Below, piece after piece: positions 15,961-44,796 of a stretch of 64,000 bases of DNA. Source of the stretch: Pseudovirgaria hyperparasitica (Eukaryota); the NCBI GenBank assembly GCA_010093815.1, contig ML996577.1; one strand, 5' to 3'. The translations under genes were made by a program, and so were the position numbers. Within the stretch, counting starts at the first letter, position 1. Each line of letters begins with the position of its first letter. Under the pieces are notes generated by a model. The model saw only the letters and a list, made by a program, of their open reading frames with translations. It did no database searches and was not told the DNA's origin.

Positions 15961-16533
15961 GGGGAGGGTGATTGTGTATGGCTGTTGTCTTCGTTAGCTG
16001 GATAGCTTCAGATATGGCAATTCAATCGTCCAGAACTCGCTCTTAATTTCCAGGGAGTTTAGATATATACTATACCATCCTATCGAATTCCTCATCCTCT
16101 TTAGTCCACTGAGATTCAATTCCCACTTCGTGGCCAGCCATTCCTCCGAGCAGATCTCCAACCCAGGCATCCTCCACGCCGCCGCCAGGAACACTCTCTC
16201 CTCGCGCATACTCTCGATGATTCGCTCATTGGCAGGGAATAGATTGCTGTTATACGCTATGCGTAGCGCCATGGTGCGGTTCTTCTGTTGCTGCCAGGTG
16301 CGCGGCCAGGGGAGGGGGATGGCACTGGACGAGTCAGCGCCGTTCAAGAAACTGTTTCAACCGCTAATTACTGACAGAACATGGTCCATCTCTATATTCC
16401 TGAGACCTTTGATGTCAAGCAGCGCGGAGCCAGTGATGCTATTCAATATCATCAGATCCATGGAGTCGTGACTGGGACTATGGGAGACTTACAGGCTACC
16501 GGTGTCGAGATTTAGGATCTTGTGTAAGATGAT

Positions 16534-16620
16534 GATGCCCTCGTGCATGTAGATTGATGCCCTCGTGCATTTAGATTGATGCCCTCGTGCATTTAGATTG
16601 ATGCCATCGTACATGTAGAT
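16534..16620. repeat. 22-bp minisatellite, 4 copies
   Basis: GATGCCCTCGTGCATKTAGATT at 16534, 16556, 16578 and 16600 (last copy degenerate). Confidence 0.95.
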
Positions 16621-17701
16621 GTCTCTTTTATGGTCTAGTACGCAGTCGCGCCATAACTCCTCTGGGGTTGCATAGCTGCGGATGAAGTAGATTGGGCAAA
16701 CTGTCTGGCATTTTGTGAGGATGAGGTTTTCTTTAAGCTGGCTCTATCGTCCATAGTAGCCGTGGTATGGGTGGTATCTACGGCCCGTGGTGGTAGAAGT
16801 ATGAGTGGTGTGGCTGGTTGAGCTTTGGGAGTGTGTTGACTTTCTTCAAGTGTGGACTGGGAAGAACTTGAGCTATGGTCGTGGTCAGGGCGGCGGCAGT
16901 ACAACTTTTGGGCACTAGCATGGCAGTAGAGGTAAATATCATATCACTTATCACGAATTTAGATTGCCATGGAAGTCGGGTGTCTATTAATTGTATTCCA
17001 TTCCATCTCTTGTTCTGCTAGTTGAAGGGTTTTCACCTGTCCCCTGCCTGTAATGCTATAGTGAGTTGCAAAAGTCGATCTGGCTGATTCTTTGTGACAG
17101 TATGTTGAGAAATACTACTATGACTGTATTGTCTTAATGCTTCATTCTTCCAGGGACCACTCTCGGTTTTTATATTCCCAGCCTACCATCCGTCACCTCC
17201 TGATGATCAAGGCTTTTCTAGTGTAAGTCGTGATTGATGCTCACGGATTCCGCCGAAACTTAAGTCGATACACTCAAAACTCGGTACCAGATATAAATGA
17301 AAGCCATGGTTGGTATGTACCTGCCTAGTCTTGAAAGCATCTTCAATGAGAAGTGTTGCAAGGAGCCATACCGTAGGGGCTACATGGCCTTGTCTCAAGA
17401 AACTGGGCATTCGTGATCTGGCTTTTGAAGCTCATCAGAGCTTCTCGCTTATCAGTATAGGTATCATCATGACAGAGGGGCATGACGCGTTTCTGCACAA
17501 TAGCTCCCAACACTCAATCGACCATACCTTTCACCACACCTGCTCCGAATCAATTAGCGCCTGGCCGTTCAGGCAAGGAATACTATGCTTTGATCAACCA
17601 GATCTTCTGCAGCTCATAAAGATCTGACAAGCTTAAGAACACACAAATACTCATATCTCACACAAAAATCATTTCTAGCCACAATGTCTTTAATATTCTC
17701 C

Positions 17702-18240
17702 ATGGCGTCCATCGACAAGCCCAACCAAGCTTGCTTCTGCCACTACCAATACCACCATTTTTACACTTACCCTCTGTTCCCTGGCGAAACCCTCTTACAC
17801 TCCAGCTGCGAGTCCATATGCCGGTTCGAAAGCTGCGAAGAGTCCTTTGAAGACCCGATAGATTTCCGCACGCACGTCCTGACAGCACACCTTGACCTTC
17901 TCCTGGCCCTCGACATCACAGTGTGCGAGAAAACAGTGGACGTGGAAACTGGCGAGATGTACGCTCTATCTACCTCCTAAATGAAACTCCTCTTCGATCT
18001 GAGCCCGTACTGACTGTATCTCTAGGTTGGAGCCAAGGGAGCTCAACTCCTATTGGCATGGGATACGCCCATTGGTGATAATCAAGAGGGCACAGTAGTG
18101 AGTGACAGCGGTACCATGAATCAATTTGAACCGCAGCTAATATCTATACCCCTAGTGCTACTGCACGCCAGCAGTACCTTGCCGCGGTGGAGGAGCAGAA
18201 GAAGAAGAAGAAGCTGGAGCTCACAGACAAGATGGACTGA
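17702..18240 (+). CDS. Small CxCH/C2H2-like Zn-finger family protein, copy 1 (2 introns)
   Basis: ACFCH...SCESICRFESCEESF...FRTHVLTAH...DVETGE. Introns 17959-18025 and ~18098-18155 splice to YATARQQYLAAVEEQKKKKKLELTDKMD*. Confidence 0.6.
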
Positions 18241-19055: not shown

Positions 19056-19660
19056 ATGCCACGTCTCTGCTGATCCGAATGCGCTCTGTCGCAGACACCA
19101 GCCGCCAACACCACACCCACGCCCTTCACTTGCGTGAACGGTACCTCACAGCTCTTCGAAATCGCGAAGAAGCCGAAGAACTTCAGCCGTTCCCTTGCCT
19201 TCCCTAGTCATCTTGTGACGAAGCATGCGAAACGATTCGCAGATCCAAATGTGTCCCTCAGACACTGATCGACCGTATCAGTAGCTCACGGTCAGCACAC
19301 ACCATACAATCACGTAGCGAGATACTTGACACAGAGCGCGCCAGACAACATGGAAAAAATCGGTCGGACTAAAAAGGGCAAGGATACACGACGTGGAGCA
19401 CGTCTACATAAGAGACCTGAGCGCGCACAAGCAAGAATGTAAACGCTGAGCAGGACGCATAAGTACATAAGGGAGAACAAGATTCCAGACTCTATTGCAG
19501 CAGCTACCATGCTCGCGAGGCGCCTTGGTGCGTGCCGAAGAGGAAGCATAATGGGGACGGCGGAGCACAGTAAAAATGTACAGGATGGAGATGCGGATGG
19601 AGATGCGGATGGAGATGTGGATGGAGACACGGATGGAGATCCTGCGGGCGACTAATGAGG
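19056..19660 (+). pseudogene. Degenerate copy of the CxCH/C2H2-like family
   Basis: ATG 19056 gives MPRLC*SEC...FEIAKKPKNFSRSLAFPSHLVTKHAKRFADPNVSLRH*, which aligns by eye to MPCVCH...FEVCLKGPPKKHKFGTPLKLRRHVANVHGLDLNSIGVRL of the 37905 copy. In-frame TGAs at 19071 and 19266; basic and then acidic tail remnants downstream. Confidence 0.45.
19583..19642 (+). repeat. 12-bp tandem repeat x5 (would encode DGDA-type units)
   Basis: GGATGGAGATGC-like units at 19583, 19595, 19607, 19619 and 19631. Confidence 0.9.
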
Positions 19661-20779
19661 TCTTGAACAAGTTAGGATGCGGCTGCTCTGGTATGGATGT
19701 AGATGATCGGTGAGTAAGAAGAGATTGTACTCTTGTAGAACAGGGCTCGTGTATCAACAGAGACATCACAATCACAAAGAAGAATATGAGGCGTTTATCC
19801 GCCATGACCGGAGTACCATATATACCTACTCCACTGTCATAGAGCATACAATATTCGACAATACTAGTTGCTACCTAAAGCATCTATCAGTCATTGGAGG
19901 TCAAATATTAGAAGATAGATTCCCGATGATGATGCTCGGGCAGTACAACGGGATGCGGGTGGCCATAGACCTATTCACGGAAAACAGTAATTGAGACCAG
20001 AATGAAACGTTGCGCCTGAGTACGATAGTCTCTACAAGTGCCTCTCATTCCTAAGCATGAACTCCTCGTTGAGATTATTAACACGCCTCACTAGTGCTTC
20101 ATATCATGCTCCAGTGGTTATGTCAAGACATAGGGTGCGAAGGATCCGATAGTTCACTATAAGTGTATAGCTGCACGATATACCCGAGCCAAGTGATCGA
20201 GGATCAGGCAGTGAACCTTCATTTACTAACTTTAAATACCTGCCCTTCGCTCCGTCCGCCCAGCCTCTATAACACTCTACAAGATACACGCCTGCTGCTG
20301 CTGTCTCTCGAGGTTCCATATCAGGTCCCTATAATCTCTAGCAGAGACCGTGCCAAGAGCTTCTCTGTCCACCATTGACATGTTAGCCAACGATGGTCCT
20401 GGAATGGAGTATGAAGATAGTGTGCAAAGATAGGTGGTAAGAATGGCGAAATTACTGTTTCGGAATATTAGCCCTCTGTGTAAAGGTACGTGAGCTTACG
20501 CGTGTTCATGTACTTACGGTGGTTATTGCTGGTTTCTGCCATGTTAAATAATTCGACCGTTTTGACCCACGAAGATGTTCACGGCCCGGGACCTCTTTGA
20601 AAAAAGCTTCAATAAGCAATGTATCTAGACTTGATTCCCGTACTCGCGCACTCTAGCATTGAATAATGGCACAAGTGACGACGTAAGGAAATATTTAAGC
20701 GAGCCTAAGATAGAGTAAGGCATGGGCCGAAGCCGGTTTACTTCTACCATAGTTAAAGATATTCGTTGTGATCGATCGT

Positions 20780-21690
20780 CGCAGGCGCGGCGGGTAATAT
20801 GTCCGCGCCTGGCTCTAGTTGTTATGTTTGTTGTTGTCATCGCCGGAGCGTGGTTCTCATTTCTGTCCGTGACGGCTTGTTAGAAACTTTTGCAGTGTAA
20901 GACTAGCGTAATGGACATACCTTATTCCAGACCGACTGATTGTATATGAGTTGTGATTGCAGACTATTATGAATCGCTGCCATCAAGCATAGCAGTACTT
21001 TTGAGCAGTACAAGCAATTGTCCACGCCATTCACTGCAGCCACGCCTGATGCTTACGAAGAGAGCAGACGCCCTATGAATCAGGGCATCCGCTCTCTTCG
21101 TGAGCAATAGACGCGTCTTCTTGGGAGGTTTGTTTAAAATCCTAGAAGCAGACCATTCATATTAGTAACTCGAAGGTTAAGGTGTTACAGGACAGTTGAC
21201 CTACCAAAATAGCTGTGGAGTTCTGTATGTATTGTGGCACCTCACTGGAGAGCGATTAGAGAGGGGATCCCTACACCTAGCTGCCCTCCAGTGAGGTATT
21301 TCACCAAGAAGAAAAGAGGAAAAGAACAGGCCGCTGTGTGGTATTAGATCGCGTGTAAATTAGAGTTGAGTATTCAAGGGGAAGGAACTTACAATCTGAG
21401 TACCGACCCCGAGCTCGATGCAATGACGAAGACGAATCAGAGTCGTCATCGCCTCGAGCTCAGGGTCTGCCTTTGCCAGGGCTTCAAAATCGTTCTCTGA
21501 ACGACGAGCACAACAATGACCCACTCGATCCATGCCTCAACAGCAATGGACCGGGAACACGATGACCATCCTTGTGCTCAGCATTTAGCATGGTCACACG
21601 TACAATAGACCACGTGAGGGCCGTGAAATGTTGTAGCAAGAAGAAGTTAAAGCAGAAATAATTTGGAGTTGAAAGTTGTAGAAGGAAAGA
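20780..21690 (-). ncRNA. Candidate spliced non-coding transcript with one hairpin per exon (pri-milRNA-like)
   Basis: TATATA at ~21716-21725 followed by a pyrimidine-rich tract on the minus strand. Canonical minus-strand introns 21334-21392, 21142-21204 and 20863-20920. Hairpins 21405-21467, 21239-21297, 21051-21105 and 20782-20811. No open frame across exons 1-2. Confidence 0.55.
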
Positions 21691-22957
21691 GGAGGATCTG
21701 GGGAGGAAATGGGTGAAATATATAGAGACCTGGCAACGGCGCTAGCGAGCCCGCTCCGAAAAACCCAAGGGCTCGTAGAATAATAGCTTCACATTTTGGT
21801 TGCTTACTGGCTGGATTGCAGACGCCAGATCACATACAGCACCATCAATTCTTTTTCAATATTCTCTATCACTGTTCGTGATCGTTTGCAGAGGCAGTGA
21901 GCTTGATCTCTGCCTTTTCTGGATCTACAGAGAGCTTCGTTGATTAACATTCGGTCTCCGGCGACCCCCTGAGAGCTTGAGCTTCATATGAACTGCTGAA
22001 TTGCAAGCCTTGTAACACACCCTGCCCTTATACAGAGAGTCTACATCTGTTTCAAAGTACCTGCAAGCAGCTCGCCTTGCTGGAATACACCTCCTTACGT
22101 ATCTATTGCAGATAGAGGTCAGTAACGAAATCAACACGGCTCAACAACCTCACGCACCTCTCAAGCATTCAAGCTCTCGACCCACATTCTCACTTGCACT
22201 GTAGCTCTCGCAGGGGTCCTACAATTCCTAGCCCTCGCTGATACCAGCCATTCAAGTGTCATCACTGGCGAGAAGTATCCATTGACGATCAGATCTCCCG
22301 AAAGTCTCACGTGCCACTGAAGCACAAACGACCTCCTCCTCCTCCTCCCTAACTCCATAAGTCCCTCGAAGATAGCGCGACTCGCCATTCTCGATAAAGC
22401 TAGTCTCAAGATTGCCTGCGGCAGGAAGAGCATTGAAAGAGACATTTCAACACCGAAGAGACTCCCACGTCCAAGAGACTTGAAGAGGTCAAAACCCCTC
22501 ACAAAACGATCAAGTACGACGGCATCACAAGCCCCTCATCCCACCTCCTCATTACATCTCCTCCTTCTACCACGATATCAAAGCTCTTGAAACGACAGGA
22601 AGACCAAACCTCGTCTTATAACGTATACTCCGACGTGCTACGACGCCCAGTAATAGATTGAGCTTGAAACCTTCTCGAGCGGCCACAATCCTTACCAAGA
22701 GACCAGGAAAAAACGTGGAAAGCACTCTAGCTACTTCCAAAGCTCTTTTGAGCGCTATCATAAAACCCTCGCCTTACCGCAAACAAGCCCCTGATTGCCT
22801 TGGCTGAACAAACCATCTCTTTTCCAAAAGGCTAACCAGAAAACGTCGGCCTGGTGTCTCGGAGTCCCTCAAACGAGCCAAACGCAAGAACAAACACAAA
22901 CCTCCACGCCCACTCCTTCCGCTATACTCGTCTCAGCCCCTCTATCAAGACGTTACA

Positions 22958-23862
22958 ATGCCCTGCCATTGTCATGCTGGTCGCAAGGTCCCACAATGGC
23001 CACCAGGCCCGGGCACTGTGTTCACATTCTCGGAATGTGAGCATGTATGCGGCGACGTGACATGTCCTGCGGGTGATTGCATCACCCACGAGAATCTACG
23101 CCTACACTTCGTCCAGGCCCACGAAGCCGAGTTTCTCGAACGTGGCGTTATAATCGCGGACCATGAGCTTAACTTGGACACGCGCGAGCTGTAAGTACCT
23201 TTCCATGACGATGAAGGCTGTGCCTTACGCGATCATTGTGCTAATTAATGTCGTATAGCGCGGATGTAGCCCCGGGCATCGTCGACACCGTCGAGCGCGT
23301 CCGGAGAGCTGAAAGGGAGAGGGGTCAGTCCTCTAAATTAGCTGGACAGGGCTATAAAGTCACAAAGTCATCCCGTCCTATCGCGGGCCAAGTCGGCAAG
23401 AAGACGAAGCGCGCAGAGGATAGCGTGGCTGAAAGACTGTCAAAGATGACGCTTGGGGGTGGAGAGGACGCAACCAAGCACAAAGAGGAGGGCAGCAAGG
23501 CCGTAAAGACCCAAGCCTGGGCACTGAATCCGGACTCAATCGAGTACGATGAAGAGGCCGGACATGGGTCAGCTACCATTGTAGCGGCTGCCGGCTCTGA
23601 AGGTATCGATGAGTCGGATATCAGGGAGGCCTTCCGGAAGTTGAATATCCAGAAGAGGCGTGAGAAGTTGGCGAGCGGGCCTCGCAGGATGACGACTGGC
23701 CGCAAGGCACCAGCTATAAAAAGCTCGAACGTACCTGTCATCCTCGTGTCCCACGCCGAGGATGCGGGCGCAGATAGCGAGGCCCTTGGTGGTATCAGTG
23801 GTCCTGTGGGAGCGGAGAAGCCTGACTTCGATGAGGATGATGCTGAGATGGAGGATGTCTGA
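22958..23862 (+). CDS. CxCH/C2H2-like Zn-finger family protein, copy 2 (intron 23191-23258), disordered basic/acidic tail
   Basis: MPCHCH...WPP...ECEHVCGDVTC...LRLHFVQAH...LDTREL splices in frame to ORF 23248-23862. Confidence 0.75.
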
Positions 23863-24000: not shown

Positions 24001-24696
24001 TCAAATTTGATAATCCTCCTGTGTGGCGCTACTCATCTCATCAGTAGGACCTCGCGACAAAACCATAATACTAGGGTAGCGGCACCCGTATCCTGTACAG
24101 GCAGAGTACTTCCAGGCGGTACTCGCTCCTTGACCAAGATCGGAAATCTGTATAATGAATTGCTTCAAGACCGGGTCTTTGTTTAATGGATGAGTTTTCC
24201 AAGCGACAGTCAGTTCAGCCTCATTTTCCAGTCTACGCATCGATATGATGAAGCTTGCTTCCACAGTGGCGCTTATCAGATTCGGATAGGCTGACAGATG
24301 TTTTCTTATACTGTCAAGGGTCGATAGCCAGTCGCAAGGCACGTGAGCACTGCTAGAGAACCATCCAAAGAGATTCTGACCATAGATCATAGTGGCAGGG
24401 AGATCCAGACGTAGGCGTCTAACACGAGCCATCATCGATGATGGAACAGCGTTTGGGCCCAAGAACCTTTCCGGGATACGCTGGTGCACAGTAGCATGAG
24501 CGAAGAAAAAATCAAGAGCCTCGTCCCGTATCTGTCGGCTGATTTGGAGCACACTGATATGGATTCGATGATCGAATGTCGCAGCCGTTACACGCACCGT
24601 GGCGTGTTTCTCGATCAAAAGTTGGTATATCTCATCCCGAAGTTCGCGGGGAAGCCTGAGAAATGCAAAAGTGGACTCGTCCTGATGCTTGAACAT
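24001..24696 (-). CDS. Hypothetical protein with an N-terminal F-box-like FLxLPxELRxxIY motif
   Basis: FLRLPRELRDEIYQLL...LQISRQIRDEALDFFF, a motif common in Pezizomycotina F-box-like hypothetical proteins. Confidence 0.65.
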   Translation of the reverse strand: MFKHQDESTFAFLRLPRELRDEIYQLLIEKHATVRVTAATFDHRIHISVLQISRQIRDEALDFFFAHATVHQRIPERFLGPNAVPSSMMARVRRLRLDLPATMIYGQNLFGWFSSSAHVPCDWLSTLDSIRKHLSAYPNLISATVEASFIISMRRLENEAELTVAWKTHPLNKDPVLKQFIIQISDLGQGASTAWKYSACTGYGCRYPSIMVLSRGPTDEMSSATQEDYQI

Positions 24697-25785
24697 AATT
24701 GAAAATGGAAGCCGGACTAGAAAAACAAGGAACAGATCAAGTGTGCGAGCAAGGAACTAATGTATCTAGCAAGGAGACTCTACATCCAGTGTTGCGGTGG
24801 GATGCTGACGAGCGCCTCGTCAGCTCTTTATCTGGTTTTTAAGCAATCTAGAACTTCGAATCCGAATCCGAGACCAATGAGGTACGTGAGATTGTGTCCA
24901 TTGTGCAGAGCATGCTGTAAGACAGAATCGATCATCGAGCTGCAGCGATAGCACAGGTGACTCGCCGGCTGGAGACCGGTACAGTCAGCAAATGAGTTCG
25001 ACTCAAGTCATCCTGACATCTGTAGATGTAAGCCGTGCCTCCCAACGACGATTGTTCTTGTCGATGAGAAATTATCTCGTTCATTCAAAGTTCCTGCGCA
25101 TAGGGTCCAAGGAGGATATTCGAACGATGCTGCCAATGGAGTGGAAGCCGAATTCTCAGCTGTGTCTACGAGCGCATATGGCGACAGATGCGAACATCGC
25201 TGCTGATAAAAGACCCATCATCCGTTCGCTGAACATCCCAATATGACTTGTAACAACGTGGTCATATTTCGTGTTCAAGAAAAGCGCTTTCGTCGCGTCA
25301 CATATTAGTCATGTATGCGGTTTCCATCGTCTCGGTCGGTTCGGCACGCCGCGAACTTCTAACATCGTCCACGGAGGTGTCCCGGAAGACGCGAGAACAA
25401 GCAACCTGGGATACATTATATTCGAGATGATAGTGATGAGCAACAATACACATGGTGCGGGTTGCTCTTTCGCAGGCTTCCCGGGCGGGCTTACTGATTA
25501 CAGTAACCGTCACCAAAGCAAAAGAAATCAAAAATCTCAAGCCCGATTCCCAGCGCCATGCCGCCTGTCGATCCGTTTCAGGGGGGCTGGATTCCCTGAA
25601 CAAGCAGCCAATGGTACGGCGCCAATGCCCCAGTCTGCCACAACAACATCTCAAATCATTCCGCGCCGCACTCGTCGATCGCATCATCGCAACACTCAAC
25701 ACCATCATCATCATCGCCTTCTGTCGCGAGAGTCCATCCTCTCCGCTTTCTCCATATTGATGGAACCGCTACTATAGAGCTCAAA

Positions 25786-27383: not shown

Positions 27384-27649
27384 AGCGGGCACGGAGAATG
27401 TTTCTATACAACCACTAAAGAACGTACAACTGAAACCAGCAAGCTTTCAACATCTCCCGCTCAGTGTATAGCACAACTTGAGCATAGAGCACCATGAAGA
27501 ACAAATCAGATTCTGGACTACTTCAGCAGGATGACGTAAGCGGCCTCAGCTTCGCTAAATATGTTTGTTCTTTTGTCCAAGGAAACTTTCTTTCCTTCAT
27601 GCCCAGTTGAACTCTCTCCGTCCAAAACCGGTCGCATGTTCCATGCATC

Positions 27650-28963
27650 ATGGCTTCCCCTAACAGCTTGTCAATATATGAGGACGAGTCCTTCACAATC
27701 CACACGGCTCTTTTGTTCTCGTCTCCATACAGGATGTTTCTTCAAAACATATCCCTCGTCATATCGCGCACCTCCGGCTTGATTCTTAAAACATACTCCC
27801 GTGCCTCCGCTTCCGCTCCAGACCCTCTCCCCCCTTCCGACATCGACCTCACCCACCTAACAATTCTTCCCGGCCTGGTCGACGCCCACACTCACATCTT
27901 CCTGCATGCCTACTCCGAAGTCTCGGCCACTCATCAAATGCTCCACGAATCCCCGGTCGAGCGCATCCTCCGCGCCTCAAACCACGCACGCGCCGCGCTC
28001 GACGCCGGCTTCACCACATACCGCGACCTGGGCACCGAAGGCATGGCCACCGCCGACATCTCCCTCCGCGACGCTATCAACCGCGGCATCACACCGGGCC
28101 CCCGGCTCTTCATCGCTACAGATCCCATCACCACCTCATCTAGCTACACCATCGCAAACGAAAACCCAACCCTCCACGTCCCCCGCCTCGCCGACGAAGC
28201 AGACGGCACCTCCGCTCTTCGTGCCGCAGTCCGCCGCCGCCTAGGCGCAGGCGCAGACATCATCAAGATCTACGCTGACCAAGAATCGCGCGCCGGCCGC
28301 TATCCAGAGCCTTCATTTCCCGGCGCCCTGCCCATGCGCTTCCCCCCGCTTTGGGGCGATGTCCCGCAACACATCACGCTGTTCACTGCTGAAGAGATGG
28401 CCGCCGTGGTTGACGAAGCGCACGCCGCGCACTGCCCGGTGGCCGCGCATGCCAGCTCGCCTAAAGCGGTCATCCGCGCGGCGCGCGCGGGCGTCGATAC
28501 GATCGAACACGGACAGGAACCCAGCGCGGAGGCGATCTCCGCGATGAGAAAAGCCGGCTGTATCTTTGTGCCGACGCTGAGCGTTATGGAGTATGAAGTG
28601 CCGGCGGACGTGCTGCCACGCATGTATGCGCATACGTATGCGGCGTGGAAAGACGGCGTGAAGATTGCGTGTGGCGGAGATACCGGACCGGTGCCCCATG
28701 GACAGAATGTGCGTGAATTGGAGCTTCTGCTTGGTGCCGGGGTGCCGCTTGCTGATGTGCTTGCTGCGGCGACGGTGCGCGGATGGGAGGCGTGTGGCGG
28801 CGAGTGGTGCGGACGGCGGTTTGGAGTGTTGCAGGAGGGATGGGCGGCGGATATTGTTGGACTCGAAGGGGATGTTAGAGAGGATGCGAGTGCGTTAAGG
28901 AGGGTGGCGTTTGTGATGAAGGATGGGGAGGTTTGGAAGAGGGATGGGAGGAGGGTTGGATGA
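27650..28963 (+). CDS. Metal-dependent amidohydrolase (Amidohydro_1, Xaa-Pro dipeptidase-like subgroup), intronless
   Basis: ILPGLVDAHTH (HxH), GFTTYRDLG, GADIIKIYAD, VAAHA, DTIEHG, GGDTG, G.L..GWAADIV. Confidence 0.92.
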   Translation: MASPNSLSIYEDESFTIHTALLFSSPYRMFLQNISLVISRTSGLILKTYSRASASAPDPLPPSDIDLTHLTILPGLVDAHTHIFLHAYSEVSATHQMLHESPVERILRASNHARAALDAGFTTYRDLGTEGMATADISLRDAINRGITPGPRLFIATDPITTSSSYTIANENPTLHVPRLADEADGTSALRAAVRRRLGAGADIIKIYADQESRAGRYPEPSFPGALPMRFPPLWGDVPQHITLFTAEEMAAVVDEAHAAHCPVAAHASSPKAVIRAARAGVDTIEHGQEPSAEAISAMRKAGCIFVPTLSVMEYEVPADVLPRMYAHTYAAWKDGVKIACGGDTGPVPHGQNVRELELLLGAGVPLADVLAAATVRGWEACGGEWCGRRFGVLQEGWAADIVGLEGDVREDASALRRVAFVMKDGEVWKRDGRRVG

Positions 28964-29085
28964 GGAGCGGCGAAGGGTGATGAGACAATACTATATTATA
29001 CTGGCATGTATATATCCCTGCCTACATAACAAAGCTTTTTGCTAATACACTTCTCCTCTCTCTTCCCGCCCATACAGCTAAACTC

Positions 29086-31560
29086 TTACATAGGCAACAC
29101 CCGCATCCGCTGACTATACTCAATATCCTTCGTCCGCTCCTCCAACACGCCGGCATAGAATCCCTGTCCCAAGACATGAATGCGCTTCCGATCAATCTTC
29201 TTACTCGCCGTGCGCGGCACCCAACTCATCAGCACCCACGTCGTCGGCACCATATATCTCGGCAACGCCGCCGCAATCCCGCGCTGCATCTCCTCGACTT
29301 TCGCTCGCACGCCGGCATCCTCCAATGCATCCGCTAACAGCGGCGCAGCACGCGGCACCGGTGCGCAGCTTGCTGGATGTGCGTCGAGATACAAGAACGC
29401 CGTCAGTGAGGGGTCGGCCTTGCCGTTGATGATGCCGAGCAAATCAACCACAACGGCATCCGCCGCTCCGAGAAATTGGCGCGCTTGGTGTTCAACTTCG
29501 AGCGCGTCGACGCGGCAGCCGTCGATTTTAAGTATCGTGTCTTTGCGACCGAGATATGTGATGCGGCCGTCAGCGGCGAGGCGGCCGAGGTCGCCGCTGC
29601 GGTACATGCGGGCGGGAGCGCGGTGCGGGTGAATGTCGCGCCGCCACGCTGGAACGAGTTTGAGGAAGCCCGCTTCAGAGCGGTGGAGAGCGGTGGTGTC
29701 GATGTAGCCGCGGGAGAGATGCGGGCCTTCGATGATAAGTTCTCCAACAGCGCCGATGGGGAGGAGGGATTCCGGAGAGGCCGGGTCGACGAGCCAGATT
29801 GCGCCGCAGGAGGGCCGGCCGATGACGGCGCCGGTGTTGGGGGCAATTGCGTCGTTGTAGGCGCAGCAGATGGCGACTTCGCCCATGCCGTACTGGTTGA
29901 CGAGATGGGTGTCGTGCGAGGCCCATTTGCGGACGAGGTCTTTGGGGAGCGGCTCGCCGCCGACGCACATGAGTTTGAGGCCGGGCACGTCGGAGGGGTT
30001 CAGGCGGATGGCGACGGTCGGGGTGAGGAAGATTGTGTTAGCGTCGAGGATGCGGATTTGACTGGCGAGGTCTTCGACGGTGCGCATCGGCGCCGGGACG
30101 CAGGCGGTGCCGCCGATGATAAGAGGGACAAGAAACTCAAGATTGGAGATGTCAAAGGCGTAGTCGTCGAATTGCAGGAAGCGCGTGTGGGCGCCGAGCT
30201 TGAGGTTACGGGAGTAGTCCTGGATGGCGGTAACGTATGAGGAATGGATCTGAACGATGCCTTTGGGAGTGCCGGTGCTGCCGGACGTGAAAAGCACGAG
30301 ACAGGCGTTGTCGGGCTGGATGTCCGGGCAGATTGGAAATTTGGTGGTAGCTGGTAAACTTCGAAGCCATTCAGGAGACAGTTCGACTACCGTAGGTACC
30401 GTGTTGCGGAATTGGTTTACAAAGTGCGAGTCGGTGAGAAGGATCGAAGTCTTGGTGCGATTGATGACTGATTCGAGGTATATGGGAGGATTGCTCGCAT
30501 GGATGGAGATGTACGCCCCGCCAGCTCTCAATATAGCAAGTCGAGCAACAATAGCCCACGTCGACTTCTCGAAACAGCTAAGAACAAACGTCTCGGGACG
30601 GACACCAAGTTGAACAAGGTGAGAAGCAAGTCTCGAGGAAAGATCATCGAGCTCTCCGTATGTCATGTCTCCATCCCATGAACGAATTGCGATTTGGTCT
30701 GGTCGCTGTTTACATGTATCGACGATCAAGTCATGGAGACATTCGCGCTTGACAGGAGAAACATTGCTTGTGAACTTCTGGATGTGTTGTCGGTCCCAGG
30801 ACGGGCAAAGGTTGACGTTATGAATCAGAAGCGTCGCAGGAGCAGTCAGTATCTGGTTGAAGATATGCTGAAAAGTGCGTAGGACACTTGCGGCCATACC
30901 CTCGTCGGTGTGAGATAGCTTATAGTCGAGCTGAACTCTCAAGCCATTGTCCGGCAACTTGGTTATGATGACACTCAGGTCAATCTGAACTTCGTTAGTT
31001 CAACTTACAGTTCCGTCTTGATTCAATCTCACCTCTTGGTGCGCAAATCGTGTTGCTGTACCATTCCTGACCTCCTCTTCGCCTACATTGAAAGAGATGG
31101 CTGTATTGGATTTATGCTGATCTGTGTCTGCTTCGACAAGAGTGATCTCAAAGCCAGCTGGACCAGTCGTCGTAAGGGACGACTGATGAGTTTGTTGAAG
31201 CCTCTGTATGAAGGACCGCACAGGTTCGCTGCGATCTAGTTTCATGACATACAAAGTTGCGAAGGTGCCAGCATCATGCTTGTCTGCAGCGTCGGCACTG
31301 GCACCAGACGGGCCACTGTAACCAAAACAAAGCACATCAGCAACAATGAAGCATTGTAATGTCAAAGCCCAGGCCGCCTGGATTGTTGCTGCTATAGCAC
31401 GACTCGTGACATCTGTTGCTATTGAGTCTCCAGCACTTATCAATTCAGATTCGATCCATCTCCTTCCCTCTGCTGCCTCATCCGTGCTGGACGAAGGAAA
31501 CAGACAAGTCGACCGATCGTGTCGACTGGAAGAATGGTCCGTGTCGATAGGGTTTGCCAT
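29086..31560 (-). CDS. NRPS-like stand-alone adenylation enzyme (partial condensation-like N-terminus + A domain, no thiolation domain), ~808 aa, intron 30985-31032
   Basis: TYGELD (A1), LAILRAGGAY (A2), FTSGSTGTPKG (A3), FDIS (A4), GELIIEGPHLSRGY (A6), YRSGDL (A7), KKIDRK (A10). Stop ~33 aa after A10 with no GGxS carrier motif; IQAAWALTL in the N-terminal part. Confidence 0.9.
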
Positions 31561-32618: not shown

Positions 32619-34124
32619 CTAGGCAGCAATACATGTGTGATGCCCAAATGCGTCCAAACAGACCTCATTCCCGCATATACCCAGGAAGCATTCTCGACAC
32701 CATGCCTCTTCTGTTGCCTGAATACCACACACAAAGCACCACAGTGGCATAGTCCCCATATCCGCCGCATCCACGCTCAGCACATTTCTTTGCTCCCTGC
32801 TCTCTTTTCCGAATACACATTGCATCAACAGCTCCCTGTCCGTATTCCCTGCATCCAGCTTCGGCAGCCATCTCACCCACGGACTCCTCCGGCGAATTGC
32901 ACTCTGCACGCGCAGTCGCATGGCAATCTCGCGATCAAGTGCAATCATGGCACCCAAGCCACGCACAGCGTCTGGCTCACGAGTAGAGGGCTCGAGATCA
33001 TGCAGAATGCCTCGTATCGTTGCTCCAATGGTCTCACTTCGGGCAGGCCAGCACTCCTTGCGAGCTGTGGTCAGCGTGCCAAGCGCTTCTATGAGGACAG
33101 GTGTACGGATGGGACGCGAGACCAGTGCGCGCCAGTAGAGGATGGATTGTAGTATATCCGCGCGTTCAATGTAGGTAAAAGCGTGTGTGATAGGGCCTGA
33201 GAAGCCGATTGCAACGCCTGAGATTCCAAGACCTTTCCCGAATATGACAAGATCTGGTTGAATTGGAATGGTAGAATTGGCGCCATTGGTGCTGTTTCCA
33301 TTGACTCCGTTCGTGCTGTGCTTGACTTTAATGTTTGTGTTGTATTCTGGGCGTTGAAATGCAAATGGCGCGCCACAGCGGATGGCAGTCATCGTCTCGT
33401 CCACGATAATCAACAATCTGTTACGCTGAGCCGCAAGTTTCAGCTGCGCATACTGTTCAACAGACAGTACGCTTCCATCTTCTGTAGAGACCATGTCGAA
33501 GACGACTGCGATAGCACCTTGAGCTTTCGCGGCCGCGAATTGAGTATCGATCTCTGAAAATGACGGCCTCGTCTTGAGATTCACAACAATAGGTGGTGGT
33601 CCAGAGGCGATAGCTTGAACCTCCCATTCCTTCGACGTGTGCGCCAACGGTCCAAATCCAGCGCCATAGATGCCCTCAATGGCGACAAACGTCGGCTTTT
33701 GCACGTGAGCTTCCGTCCAGCCAAGCAATTCAAGTGAGAAATCCCGTATCCGTGAGCCAGTTTCCTCGGGTTCCTCGTTCGCCTTCGGTCTTAGCTCTTC
33801 GCTATTCAGAATCAACGGACTAGTGGCGACAGTATTGAGAACGAGACTGGCGATGGTCGTAGGAAGAAGAGCATCGGTGGCATGGGCGTGCAACGAGATC
33901 GGATAGTAGCCGCCAAAGAAGTCGGCAAACAGATTCGTGTATGATCCTAGAAGGACGTGATACTGTCGATCTACGGAAACAGGAGAGACAAGATATTGCT
34001 CCCAAAGCTTTCGAATGGCTGGGTCGTGTAATGTACTGCGTGCGGAATAGGAGCAGCCCCAAACAGAATGGAAGTCGTGGTCTGGAAGAGGATCCTCTTG
34101 GTGATTCGACTTGATGCCGTTCAT
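32619..34124 (-). CDS. Class III (fold I) PLP-dependent aminotransferase-like enzyme with a C-terminal Cys/His-rich finger, ~501 aa, intronless
   Basis: LIIVDETMTAIRCG..FA, PDLVIFGKGL (Schiff-base Lys), VRGLGAMIAL. C-terminus CFVC-x9-CREC-x4-C-x4-C-x5-HHTC. Likely start MNGIKS at 34124. Confidence 0.8.
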   Translation of the reverse strand: MNGIKSNHQEDPLPDHDFHSVWGCSYSARSTLHDPAIRKLWEQYLVSPVSVDRQYHVLLGSYTNLFADFFGGYYPISLHAHATDALLPTTIASLVLNTVATSPLILNSEELRPKANEEPEETGSRIRDFSLELLGWTEAHVQKPTFVAIEGIYGAGFGPLAHTSKEWEVQAIASGPPPIVVNLKTRPSFSEIDTQFAAAKAQGAIAVVFDMVSTEDGSVLSVEQYAQLKLAAQRNRLLIIVDETMTAIRCGAPFAFQRPEYNTNIKVKHSTNGVNGNSTNGANSTIPIQPDLVIFGKGLGISGVAIGFSGPITHAFTYIERADILQSILYWRALVSRPIRTPVLIEALGTLTTARKECWPARSETIGATIRGILHDLEPSTREPDAVRGLGAMIALDREIAMRLRVQSAIRRRSPWVRWLPKLDAGNTDRELLMQCVFGKESREQRNVLSVDAADMGTMPLWCFVCGIQATEEAWCRECFLGICGNEVCLDAFGHHTCIAA

Positions 34125-35851
34125 GTTAGTTGTAGAGGTCTGGTAGGAATTATGCCGGTGATGTCGGTATTCAAGATACGAAGAACTTTTACAAATGGTT
34201 GAGCTTGTGTAAGAATGTGCATGCAAATGTTGTTGACTCGGCTGATTGGACTTGGACAGCGCCACTTGGGCTGTATAGTACGCCTTCATTCTGAAAAATA
34301 CCCGACCATATAGAATGCGTCATCCACTTAGCTATTCACTCGAGGAAAACAGAGATGAAAAATCCAGGAGCTACTAGACTGGGGTCCTGATTTATGCTTC
34401 TGGGCGGCTCGAGTAGGATTCTGATACTCTCTTGCCGCGAAATGGGTTCATGATAAGGAAGATGCGAATGGGCTAACGAAGAACTCTTTGGACGTCGTTG
34501 AGATCTGATTAAGATCGAGTCGCTCGCATGTCGCTATGCGACACCAATTGTTCGACAATATCCAGTAGCCAGTATGGAGACCTCTTGAACAGAAGAAATC
34601 TAGCGATAAGGTCTGTGTATCAATTCTAGTCTTGCCCCTTTCCCCATCCCCGTGTAGCTCGATTTTTCTGCAAAGGGTGTCCTGCAGTATCGGTGCCTTG
34701 TATTTCCATTATTTCCCCTATCACAAGTTCACAACTAATTTTTCTCCTTTCGTTCTGCTCGCGGGGATGATTTTCTTCTCCGCTGCCTCGTCAGTATCAA
34801 GATCACATATCTCCATCTACCCGTCAGTGGTGTCATTGAGTACTTCATTGATAATTGCGACTCCTGGGCCCGTCTGTCACAGACAGAGTATTCCTCGACA
34901 TCTGTGACCAAGGTTTCTCATTCGGCGTGTCTTCTTTTCCAACATTTCCTCCGAGGCAAACTGAAGTAGATCAAAGTCTAGCTCTACAGGTTTGCGGCGC
35001 AGCAGTGACTCCTTGAAAAGTGGCGCTCGAGAGATACGATGGAAACACTTCGGAATGTCAGTTGTGTCAGAAACGCGCCGGTGTTGGACATCTTGACCAT
35101 CTCTGACCTTCAGACCTCACGCGAGTGACCTCAAATGAGGTTGTTGTATTTATATGCGGTGGCAAGGAAGAATTTATGGAGATGTGCTGCGCCGTAGACG
35201 AACATTGTGTTACAACGGAGAGAATGACGATTCGATTTCGCATTCATACAACGCCATTGTGTCACTATGTCATCGAATTCAACACTTCTTACAGATGTTG
35301 ACCTTAATTCCCCCTCCTGCCTACGAACTCACGTGGTCTCAACCACTGTGTAACTTCAATTGATGGCACTCTATATAGCTAGCATAGCTTTCTGACTCGG
35401 CTGCGGGCATGTCTTATTAGACGATCAACGTTTTCTAGGAAGACTGTGATACAACAGTACGGTGTATTAGGATGCATATCAATGATCAACTATCACATAA
35501 AAGTGATTCTTCTTTAGCTTCAAGTACCTAAAGCGCGAATAATTCACACATTGTATAGAACCTGATATTCCCCAGACTTACAGCGTAAATCTTTTACCGT
35601 TAGCAATTAGGAATCGCTTCTTTTTCAGCTGGACCTAGACTTCCACTATTCAGGGACAAAACAATCTCGCCATTGTTCAAGGGGATTCAATAATTCACCT
35701 CCTTCAGTCGACGAAACGGAGTTCATGTCTGATGGATGAGCAAAGCCCCATCTCACTGACGTAGCTCCCGAAGAAGGATCACAACAGGCACTCACACAGC
35801 ATCTATACTCAACAGAGAAATCCACTTCATATTGCTCCATCTACCCACATA

Positions 35852-43439: not shown

Positions 43440-44796
43440 ATGACAACCTCGTCTGCTGCGGCAGCATCTTCAAAGCCTCCTCGCCCGCGATCTCCACACT
43501 TTCCCCCACACAATGCTCCCCGCGTGTGGCTCCTCGTACACGGTACTTCGCCTATCAACATTGCTCTAGCCCGGAAGGTCATTGAGTATGGAGACTATGT
43601 TGTAGCAGGCGTGCTACCAGTGGAGTATGAGCGGGACGAGGAGAGGATGTCGGAGTTCAAGGAGTTTCTGGAAGAGGCTAAGAGGACGGAGAGGTGGAGG
43701 GAGAGGCTGAGGGTTGTGGGACTGGATGCAAGGTACATATCTGCTGGACACCCTCACCGCGGAAGAGTCGGTTTGACATAGTATAGAGTTATGGGGCAAT
43801 GTCAGGCTGCTGTGGCTGAAGCAGTCGAAGCTTTTGGAAGAATTGATGTGCTTCTAGGGAGCACTAGTGAAGGTAGGTGCTTGTCAGGGGAGCTTACGAA
43901 CAAGTGCTGAGTATAGCAGCTGTTGTTGGAACAATTGAGGAGCTGGCTCAGTCGGCCCGGACACAAGCTGTCGCGCGCGATCAGTTTGAGATCAACTTCT
44001 TTGCCAACGTCAATATCATAAAGGCGGTCCTACCGAGCATGAGAGAGAAGAAGAATGGACACATCATCATGCTGACGGCGATAAGTACGTACTATCGCGT
44101 GACATTATATCATATAAGCCTTGACTAACCTGGGAATAGCAAGCCATCTTGGCACTCCGGGCCTAGGACTCTACTGTTCGTCTCAATGGGCTATCGAGGG
44201 GTATTGCGACGTATGAACCATACCTGGCACCTGTTTGACAAATGCGCTGACCTTCGCAGAGCATCGCATACGAAATCGCTCCGTTCAACATCAAAGTCAC
44301 CATCGTGCAGCCGAACTTTGAAATCACCGTCCTGACAAACCGCATTACTTCCGTACCCCCTATGCCAGAGTACTCTCCGGACGTGAACCCAGCGCCTTTA
44401 TCTCGAGAATTACTTAGTGGCATTCTAGACAGACTTGAAGGTAGCAAGGGCGCCGTTGCCACTCCGACAGAGGACTCCACCGCCATGGCAGATGATGCGC
44501 CGTCCCCGGCAAGTACTGTGCACAACCCGACCTTGGGCGACCAGCTCTCTACTGAGAATGTAACATCGCTATACCCGCCCCTTGTACCAAGTTTCAAAGA
44601 CCCGCTCATCGCCGAGACCGTACATGCCCTCACAGCGATTGGCGGTCATGACAATCCTCCAGCGAGGCATATTGTCGGCCTGGAGGGCGTCATGGCCGTC
44701 AAGGAGAAGCTGAAGACTGTGAGTGAGGAGCTTGAGGATTTCATAGAGGTCAGCAATGCTGTTGATATAACGAAAGACGAGGAAACGCTAGGATAG
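43440..44796 (+). CDS. Short-chain dehydrogenase/reductase-like protein (atypical motifs), ~4 introns
   Basis: RVWLL.., AVEAFGRIDVL, QFEINFFANVNIIKAVLPSMR, LGLYCSSQWAIEG, EIAPFNIKVTIVQP. Confidence 0.85.

Follow-up and report, generated by a model that had tools for sequence, protein, structure and literature searches.

MicroRNA host genes and clusters are well described in animals and plants, and include BIC/MIR155HG, H19/miR-675, miR-17~92 and the plant MIR166 and MIR395 clusters. Their stems are about 33–35 bp or longer and are first cut by Drosha or DCL1, the lower stem positioning this first cut of the Dicer pathway in both kingdoms, and the hairpins of a cluster usually lie within one intron or one exon. 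A different type of precursor is found at hpRNA siRNA loci, e.g. in Drosophila, where stems of hundreds of base pairs yield many phased siRNAs. To our knowledge there is no Drosha in fungi. Among the fungal miRNA-like loci reported so far, weak single hairpins predominate, and many do not survive re-analysis: 666 of 1727 were confirmed in the survey of Johnson et al. 2022 (PMC9757828), which describes the well-supported mi/milRNA hairpins as short and animal-like, with less than 20 nt between the duplex arms. The major milRNAs of Neurospora, as described in PMC3547838, are made by Pol III and are not spliced Pol II RNAs. For other mycoparasites, Dicer-dependent small RNAs have been reported as important (PMC8557909). 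Pseudovirgaria hyperparasitica, the species examined here, is a Dothideomycete that has been described as a mycoparasite living on rust sori (PMC3317363). Among the matches listed in our literature searches there was no small-RNA or RNAi study of Pseudovirgaria, and our searches turned up no fungal precedent for a layout in which one spliced RNA has a different hairpin in each of three consecutive exons.

The present study analyzes a locus of this kind in P. hyperparasitica, within a 64-kb stretch of DNA that is referred to throughout as the window. Its product is a minus-strand transcript of five exons that is spliced and apparently non-coding, and the first three exons carry one strong hairpin of pre-miRNA size each (55–63 nt, 21–25 bp). 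The transcript extends on the minus strand from about 19900 to at least 21725 and contains four short canonical introns. It was recovered from contigs of two RNA runs, X1 and X2 (one sample, one study), which were compared with positions 20300–22100 of the window. Each run contributed a single assembled contig (4551 and 4791 nt) that spans the five exons over four splice joints with no differences from the window; being assemblies, these contigs do not stand for single molecules, and both merge the locus with neighbouring genes. They are informative on splicing, not on small RNAs, strand, transcript ends or expression level. Contigs of both runs skip four segments exactly, the ends of which are CT..AC on the plus strand, i.e. 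GT..AG on the minus strand; because the window retains the segments that the contigs skip, the contigs must come from spliced RNA.

In the direction of transcription, exon 1 (21393–22100 in the contig pieces, with a firm 3′ boundary and the contig running on past 22100) is followed by intron 1 (21334–21392, 59 nt, GTAAGT..CTAAT..CAG, joint 21333/21393 in both runs), exon 2 (21205–21333, 129 nt), intron 2 (21142–21204, 63 nt, GTAGGT..CTAAT..TAG, joint 21140/21204 with the cut moved by +1), exon 3 (20921–21141, 221 nt), intron 3 (20863–20920, 58 nt, GTATGT..CTAAC..CAG, joint 20862/20921), exon 4 (20518–20862, 345 nt), intron 4 (20455–20517, 63 nt, GTAAGT..CTAAT..CAG, joint 20454/20518 in both runs) and exon 5 (19856–20454 as reached by the contigs, with an approximate 3′ end). 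The internal exons are those of the contigs from both runs, and on the exon-5 side the contigs reach 251 nt (X1) and 444 nt (X2) beyond 20300, assuming no further intron. Every one of the four introns has a CTAAT or CTAAC branch-point motif. The first three introns had been predicted in an earlier note made from the sequence alone, and each of them proved to be skipped exactly in the contigs of both runs; the fourth, also GT..AG, was absent from that prediction and is new. The proposed minus-strand transcript joining the hairpin-bearing exons was likewise recovered, with one assembled RNA contig linking them all. The minus-strand TATATA at 21719–21724 and the CT-rich tract downstream of it (about 21681–21717), to which the earlier note had also pointed, are both present in the sequence, and the TATATA is a possible core promoter. 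RNA contigs also cover sequence upstream of it, past 22100, and because they run on from there into neighbouring genes, a start site at the TATATA stays a candidate.

The locus occupies an interval free of long ORFs, flanked by two zinc-finger-like plus-strand ORFs (17594–17980 and 22808–23194). These two flanking ORFs have in common a Cys/His pattern resembling a zinc finger and are weakly alike (25% identity over 80 aa, pairwise E 1e-5), and no Pfam match was found for the ORF at 22808–23194 or for its downstream exon. The RNA contigs that bear the locus continue rightward for about 2.7 kb, from 22100 to about 24890, covering plus-strand ORFs at 22808–23862 and a minus-strand ORF of the 2EXR family (24001–24756), and transcription appears to be continuous or overlapping across three differently oriented units. 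The gene-poor stretch to the left of the locus contains two tandem repeats, one at 16533–16620 (a 22-nt unit in 4.0 copies, 93% matches) and one at 19583–19640 (a 12-nt unit in 4.8 copies, 89% matches). A neighbouring glucosidase I ORF is 100% identical to a protein recorded from P. hyperparasitica and has its nearest other relative at 76% identity, and a metagenome scan with the neighbouring ORF at 23245–23862 matched 243 pattern stretches, none of which was confirmed. Farther to the right, GC content rises to 62% at 28001–30000 compared with about 50% elsewhere; this region has an amidohydrolase ORF (27611–28963, plus strand) and an AMP-binding enzyme ORF (29086–30999, minus strand), with an aminotransferase-like ORF (32619–34319, minus strand) and MFS transporter ORFs nearby, and together with its neighbours it may be a metabolic gene cluster.

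Folding recovered the three long hairpins and the additional 9-bp stem that the earlier note had listed, all considered here on the minus strand. The first, H1 (21405–21467), has 25 stem positions made up of 22 Watson-Crick pairs, 2 G-U pairs and 1 G.A mismatch around a 13-nt loop, and ends 12 nt ahead of its 5′ splice site. H2 (21238–21298) consists of a 16-bp outer stem including 2 G-U pairs, a 3x3 internal loop and 9 further pairs with bulges, and its apex is a loop-less DNA palindrome. H3 (21050–21106) has 21 continuous bp including 3 G-U pairs, then a C.A mismatch and 4 further bp, closed by a 5-nt loop, while H4 (20782–20811) is small and weak with a perfect 9-bp stem. As minus-strand RNA, H1, H2 and H3 folded with dG of −45.4, −36.8 and −44.4 kcal/mol and z of −6.98, −5.41 and −9.56 against dinucleotide shuffles, and none of 200 shuffles matched the stability of any of the three; for H4 the values were −18.1 and −3.42. 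All four are kept when the whole spliced RNA of 1583 nt is folded to minimum energy; H1–H3 there span positions 259–549 (about 290 nt), and their centres are spaced by 109 and 127 nt. The description of genuine foldbacks in PMC9757828, with no secondary stems in the duplex and few unpaired bases, applies to H1, with one mismatch in 25 positions, and to H3, with its uninterrupted 21 bp, and only loosely to H2 with its 3x3 loop and bulges. The loops of H1 and H3 are also within the arm spacing of less than 20 nt given in that source. Two further features of the arrangement may be recorded: H2 and H3 each start at position 36 of their own exon (exon starts 21333 and 21141), and the 7-mer CUGAUUC is common to the apical loops of H1 (21434–21440) and H3 (21077–21083) on the minus strand.

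The hairpins are extreme for their surroundings. When both strands of the 64 kb were scanned in 12788 segments of 70 nt (mean −13.5, sd 5.4), H3 and H1 were the two most stable and H2 was about the seventh locus, the loci rivalling H2 in raw stability lying mostly within the 62%-GC region. When the 13 most stable loci were compared by z against mononucleotide shuffles, H3 (−8.9), H1 (−7.8) and H2 (−6.4) were the best, followed by loci at −5.2 and −4.8, and in simulations of chance placement over 64 kb, 3 of 7 loci came to lie in a stretch of 450 nt with P = 0.005. One comparable hairpin was found at 44639–44702 (plus strand, 64 nt, 14 + 8 bp, dG about −39.9, z −5.2), within the C-terminal coding exon of a dehydrogenase-like ORF (44251–44796, plus strand). 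That a 22-bp hairpin equally strong as those of the locus lies inside a coding exon indicates that this genome makes such hairpins without a small-RNA gene role, and it counts against regarding the locus as a small-RNA precursor.

The coding-exon hairpin would also fit a reading in which the locus is transcribed but non-coding, or was once a gene and has decayed, and its hairpins are neutral by-products of template-switch replication errors; the RNA would then be real and the hairpins without small-RNA function. A single template-switch error yields a near-perfect inverted repeat in one event, template switching is a documented source of whole hairpins arising de novo (PMC10710096, for the cases described there), and the loop-less palindrome at the apex of H2 fits such an origin, as do the four well-formed introns of an ORF-less RNA, which would suit a former coding gene. 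What this explanation has to accommodate is three independent events within 420 nt when one comparable hairpin exists elsewhere in 64 kb, which is improbable if events are uniform, and a greater stability of all three hairpins on the transcribed strand. On balance we consider it possible but somewhat doubtful. A template-switch origin could be compatible with later recruitment of the hairpins as small-RNA genes or with none.

The strand difference that the earlier note had read from G-U positions was borne out by folding both strands: H1, H2 and H3 were all more stable on the minus, i.e. transcribed, strand (−45.4 vs −36.5, −36.8 vs −33.4 and −44.4 vs −40.6, respectively), and H4 was stronger on the plus strand (−19.8 vs −18.1). 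Counts of wobble pairs point the same way, with 7 G-U pairs on the minus strand of the solid stems vs 1 A.C (a G-U if read on the plus strand), or 10 vs 4 if the ambiguous inner part of H2 is counted (one-sided binomial about 0.035 and about 0.09, respectively). The G-U counts given in the earlier note were about right for H1; for H3 the recount gave 3 G-U plus 1 C.A, and for H2 they depend on its ambiguous inner part. The G-U asymmetry agrees with the transcribed strand and is weak as a signal of selection: the same bias would follow from deamination of the non-template strand. The hairpin at 44639–44702 has the same pattern as H1–H3, with 3 of 3 wobble pairs being sense-strand G-U and no A.C.

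The three hairpins are essentially unrelated to each other in sequence, as had been claimed: blastn at word size 9 gave no cross-matches between H1, H2 and H3, and of 20 comparisons by local alignment one reached p 0.004, which is not significant once corrected. The three are not copies of one another. MITEs, foldback elements and the 3′ hairpins of Helitrons typically hold short near-perfect palindromes, and the hairpins could be supposed to be fragments of such multi-copy mobile elements that the transcript has captured. We consider this extremely unlikely. Allowing up to 3 mismatches, 18-mers of the hairpin arms had no second copy in the 64-kb window, where the sole match from blastn (word size 9) was H3 against itself, inverted; a 24-mer of H3 had no exact match in metagenome contigs. 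Neither did the sequences after the hairpins have a terminal motif in common, and the absence of similarity among the three hairpins likewise speaks against mobile-element fragments.

Coding potential of the spliced RNA appears low. Its longest ATG frames are 71, 71, 57 and 52 aa, and the frames over exons 1–2 are closed as the earlier note had stated, the one ORF that enters exon 2 stopping 10 codons in. The two 71-aa ORFs are located in exons 4 and 5, and the 57-aa ORF starts at 21533, spans H1 and intron 1, and has a 35-aa ORF upstream of it. No Pfam family was found in the three frames scanned (both 71-aa frames and the portion of the 57-aa frame that lies in exon 1), the exon-4 frame had no words in common with catalogued proteins of 46–147 residues nor the exon-1 frame with those of 25–83 residues, and an Atlas search with the frames of the locus gave no usable match. 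The frames themselves were absent from the catalogued proteins, those of exons 1 and 4 among entries of similar length and that of exon 5 at any length. The exon-5 frame (20104–20328, minus strand) did give 74 matches at E up to 1e-3, all multi-stretch and to long proteins, and all 6 of those scanned were PSII_BNR/YCF48 repeat proteins; in pairwise comparison with such bacterial-type proteins the similarity covers one 34-aa motif at 37–44% identity. We take this similarity as a summed match to one short repeat motif, possibly a relic or a product of chance, and do not count it as a sign of coding. A protein-coding gene was rejected, there being no open frame with relatives through the spliced exons.

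Codon usage complicates this picture in one place. The 47 exon-1 codons of the 57-aa ORF have a codon log-likelihood of 0.154, equal to the median of true coding chunks and reached by 3.3% of 757 short frames; since six ORFs were scored and the other five were low, this is not significant. It bears nonetheless on several readings. Coding-like codons in the top 3.3% of short frames speak against a small-RNA precursor, and for a decayed former gene they could be a trace of the lost frame, as could the resemblance of the exon-5 frame to one blade of a beta-propeller repeat; set against the latter are the lack of any protein relative for exon 1 or exon 4 in the searches described above and the weakness, as evidence, of an exon-5 match that sums repeats of one 34-aa motif. 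The same score is the principal point in favor of one or more micropeptide genes, comprising the 57-aa ORF and/or the 71-aa ORFs of exons 4 and 5, in which the hairpins would be incidental or would regulate translation. We find this very unlikely given that one ORF in six at the 3% level is not significant, that no relative was detected by Pfam, word sharing or Atlas search, that a hairpin of −45 kcal/mol lies within the ORF, and that the 35-aa ORF precedes it.

No Rfam family scored above threshold in 19500–23000 (cmscan, E up to 1), the best match being mir-4818 at 21.2 bits vs a 92-bit threshold (E 0.44). Nor was the locus seen to coincide with a CDS or, as far as copies within the window show, with a transposon, although H1 does lie inside the 57-aa ORF with its coding-like codons. 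Several other classes were considered and rejected: fungal telomerase RNA, for the spliced RNA has neither CCCTAA nor TTAGGG; a snoRNA host gene, for there was no Rfam match and introns of 58–63 nt are too short for snoRNAs; and introner-like elements, for the four introns are unlike one another by eye.

An RNA that accumulates intact and whose hairpins are more stable on the transcribed strand might instead be a structured functional lncRNA, with the hairpins acting in cis or binding protein and no small RNA loaded into Argonaute. They could for example be Rnt1-type RNase III entry sites that control stability of the RNA, or docking sites for a dsRNA-binding protein. The 7-mer in the apical loops of both H1 and H3 and the start of both H2 and H3 at exon position 36 would be in keeping with such a role, but both were spotted after the fact and could be chance; CUGAUUC occurs 11 times in the window over both strands (13 expected), 2 of these 11 being the loops of H1 and H3, and it could be either a shared loop motif or coincidence. 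Yeast Rnt1 recognises a tetraloop of AGNN type, and none of the loops of H1–H3 is of that type. With no match to a known RNA family either, we regard a structured lncRNA of this sort as distinctly unlikely.

The interpretation that we tentatively prefer, while placing it short of probable, is that the locus is a candidate multi-hairpin precursor of miRNA-like RNAs or hairpin siRNAs. Once spliced, one RNA would carry the three hairpins in a span of about 290 nt, and these would be recognised as double-stranded substrates by a Dicer-like RNase III. Each hairpin would release its own duplex of about 21–23 nt, and the duplexes would be loaded into Argonaute and act in trans on targets. In favor of such a precursor, the hairpins are extreme for the window, clustered, single-copy within it and more stable on the transcribed strand, they persist in the fold of the whole spliced RNA, and their size suits the well-supported fungal loci of PMC9757828; the host RNA is spliced at four canonical introns and is without a credible frame or Rfam family. 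Against it, in addition to the hairpin in a coding exon and the codon usage of exon 1, stems of 21–25 bp have room for one Dicer product and have no lower stem. Further, enough intact RNA with the hairpins is present for contigs to be assembled from it, and cleavage is therefore at best partial. The Pol III origin of the major Neurospora milRNAs also weighs against a spliced Pol II precursor. The suggestion in the earlier note that the surrounding zinc-finger genes might be targets was not upheld, as no target site was found in the window including both flanking ORFs (18-mers, up to 3 mismatches). Of that note's overall interpretation, a spliced Pol II precursor of clustered miRNA-like RNAs, the structural half was sustained, with a minus-strand transcript, exact introns and no credible coding frame, and the small-RNA half is retained at the tentative strength just given. 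A more specific proposal would be that this is the first fungal polycistronic miRNA-like gene, in which a spliced Pol II non-coding RNA with three exonic hairpins gives rise to three different small RNAs, some of which may act on the rust host; we consider this unlikely as it stands.

Overall, we regard the locus as a genuine long non-coding RNA that is spliced and bears a cluster of hairpins. With three near-perfect hairpins on a non-coding RNA whose splicing is demonstrated, it would make an unusually clean case for testing whether clustered, Pol II-derived genes of miRNA type exist in fungi and how minimal stems are handled by a Dicer without Drosha. The fungus is a hyperparasite of rust fungi and, if the precursor reading is true, trans-species targets would have practical interest. 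Should no small RNAs arise from the hairpins, the locus would still illustrate well how de novo hairpins can cluster in a fungal lncRNA.

As with the fungal milRNA loci characterized in PMC9757828, the hairpins of the present locus are short and animal-like, with less than 20 nt between arms and few unpaired stem bases, in a context that is non-CDS, non-TE and non-Rfam; unlike the loci described in that source, it is known from transcript and folds alone, and it has three hairpins on one spliced RNA, one per exon. The hairpins' location on a spliced RNA also sets it apart from the major Neurospora milRNAs, which are Pol III products in the account of PMC3547838. To template-switch hairpins as presented by Monttinen et al. 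2023 (PMC10710096) it is similar in having near-perfect short inverted repeats in already transcribed DNA, and such an origin is plausible, although that work, as far as its description extends, covers primates and single events. It resembles hpRNA siRNA loci in carrying near-perfect inverted repeats in a non-coding transcript that would be diced to siRNAs, but each stem here could yield a single duplex. Finally, the locus is like animal and plant miRNA host genes in being a spliced non-coding RNA of Pol II type with hairpins about 110–130 nt apart in the mature RNA, and differs from them in that its stems are 21–25 bp and each lies in an exon of its own.
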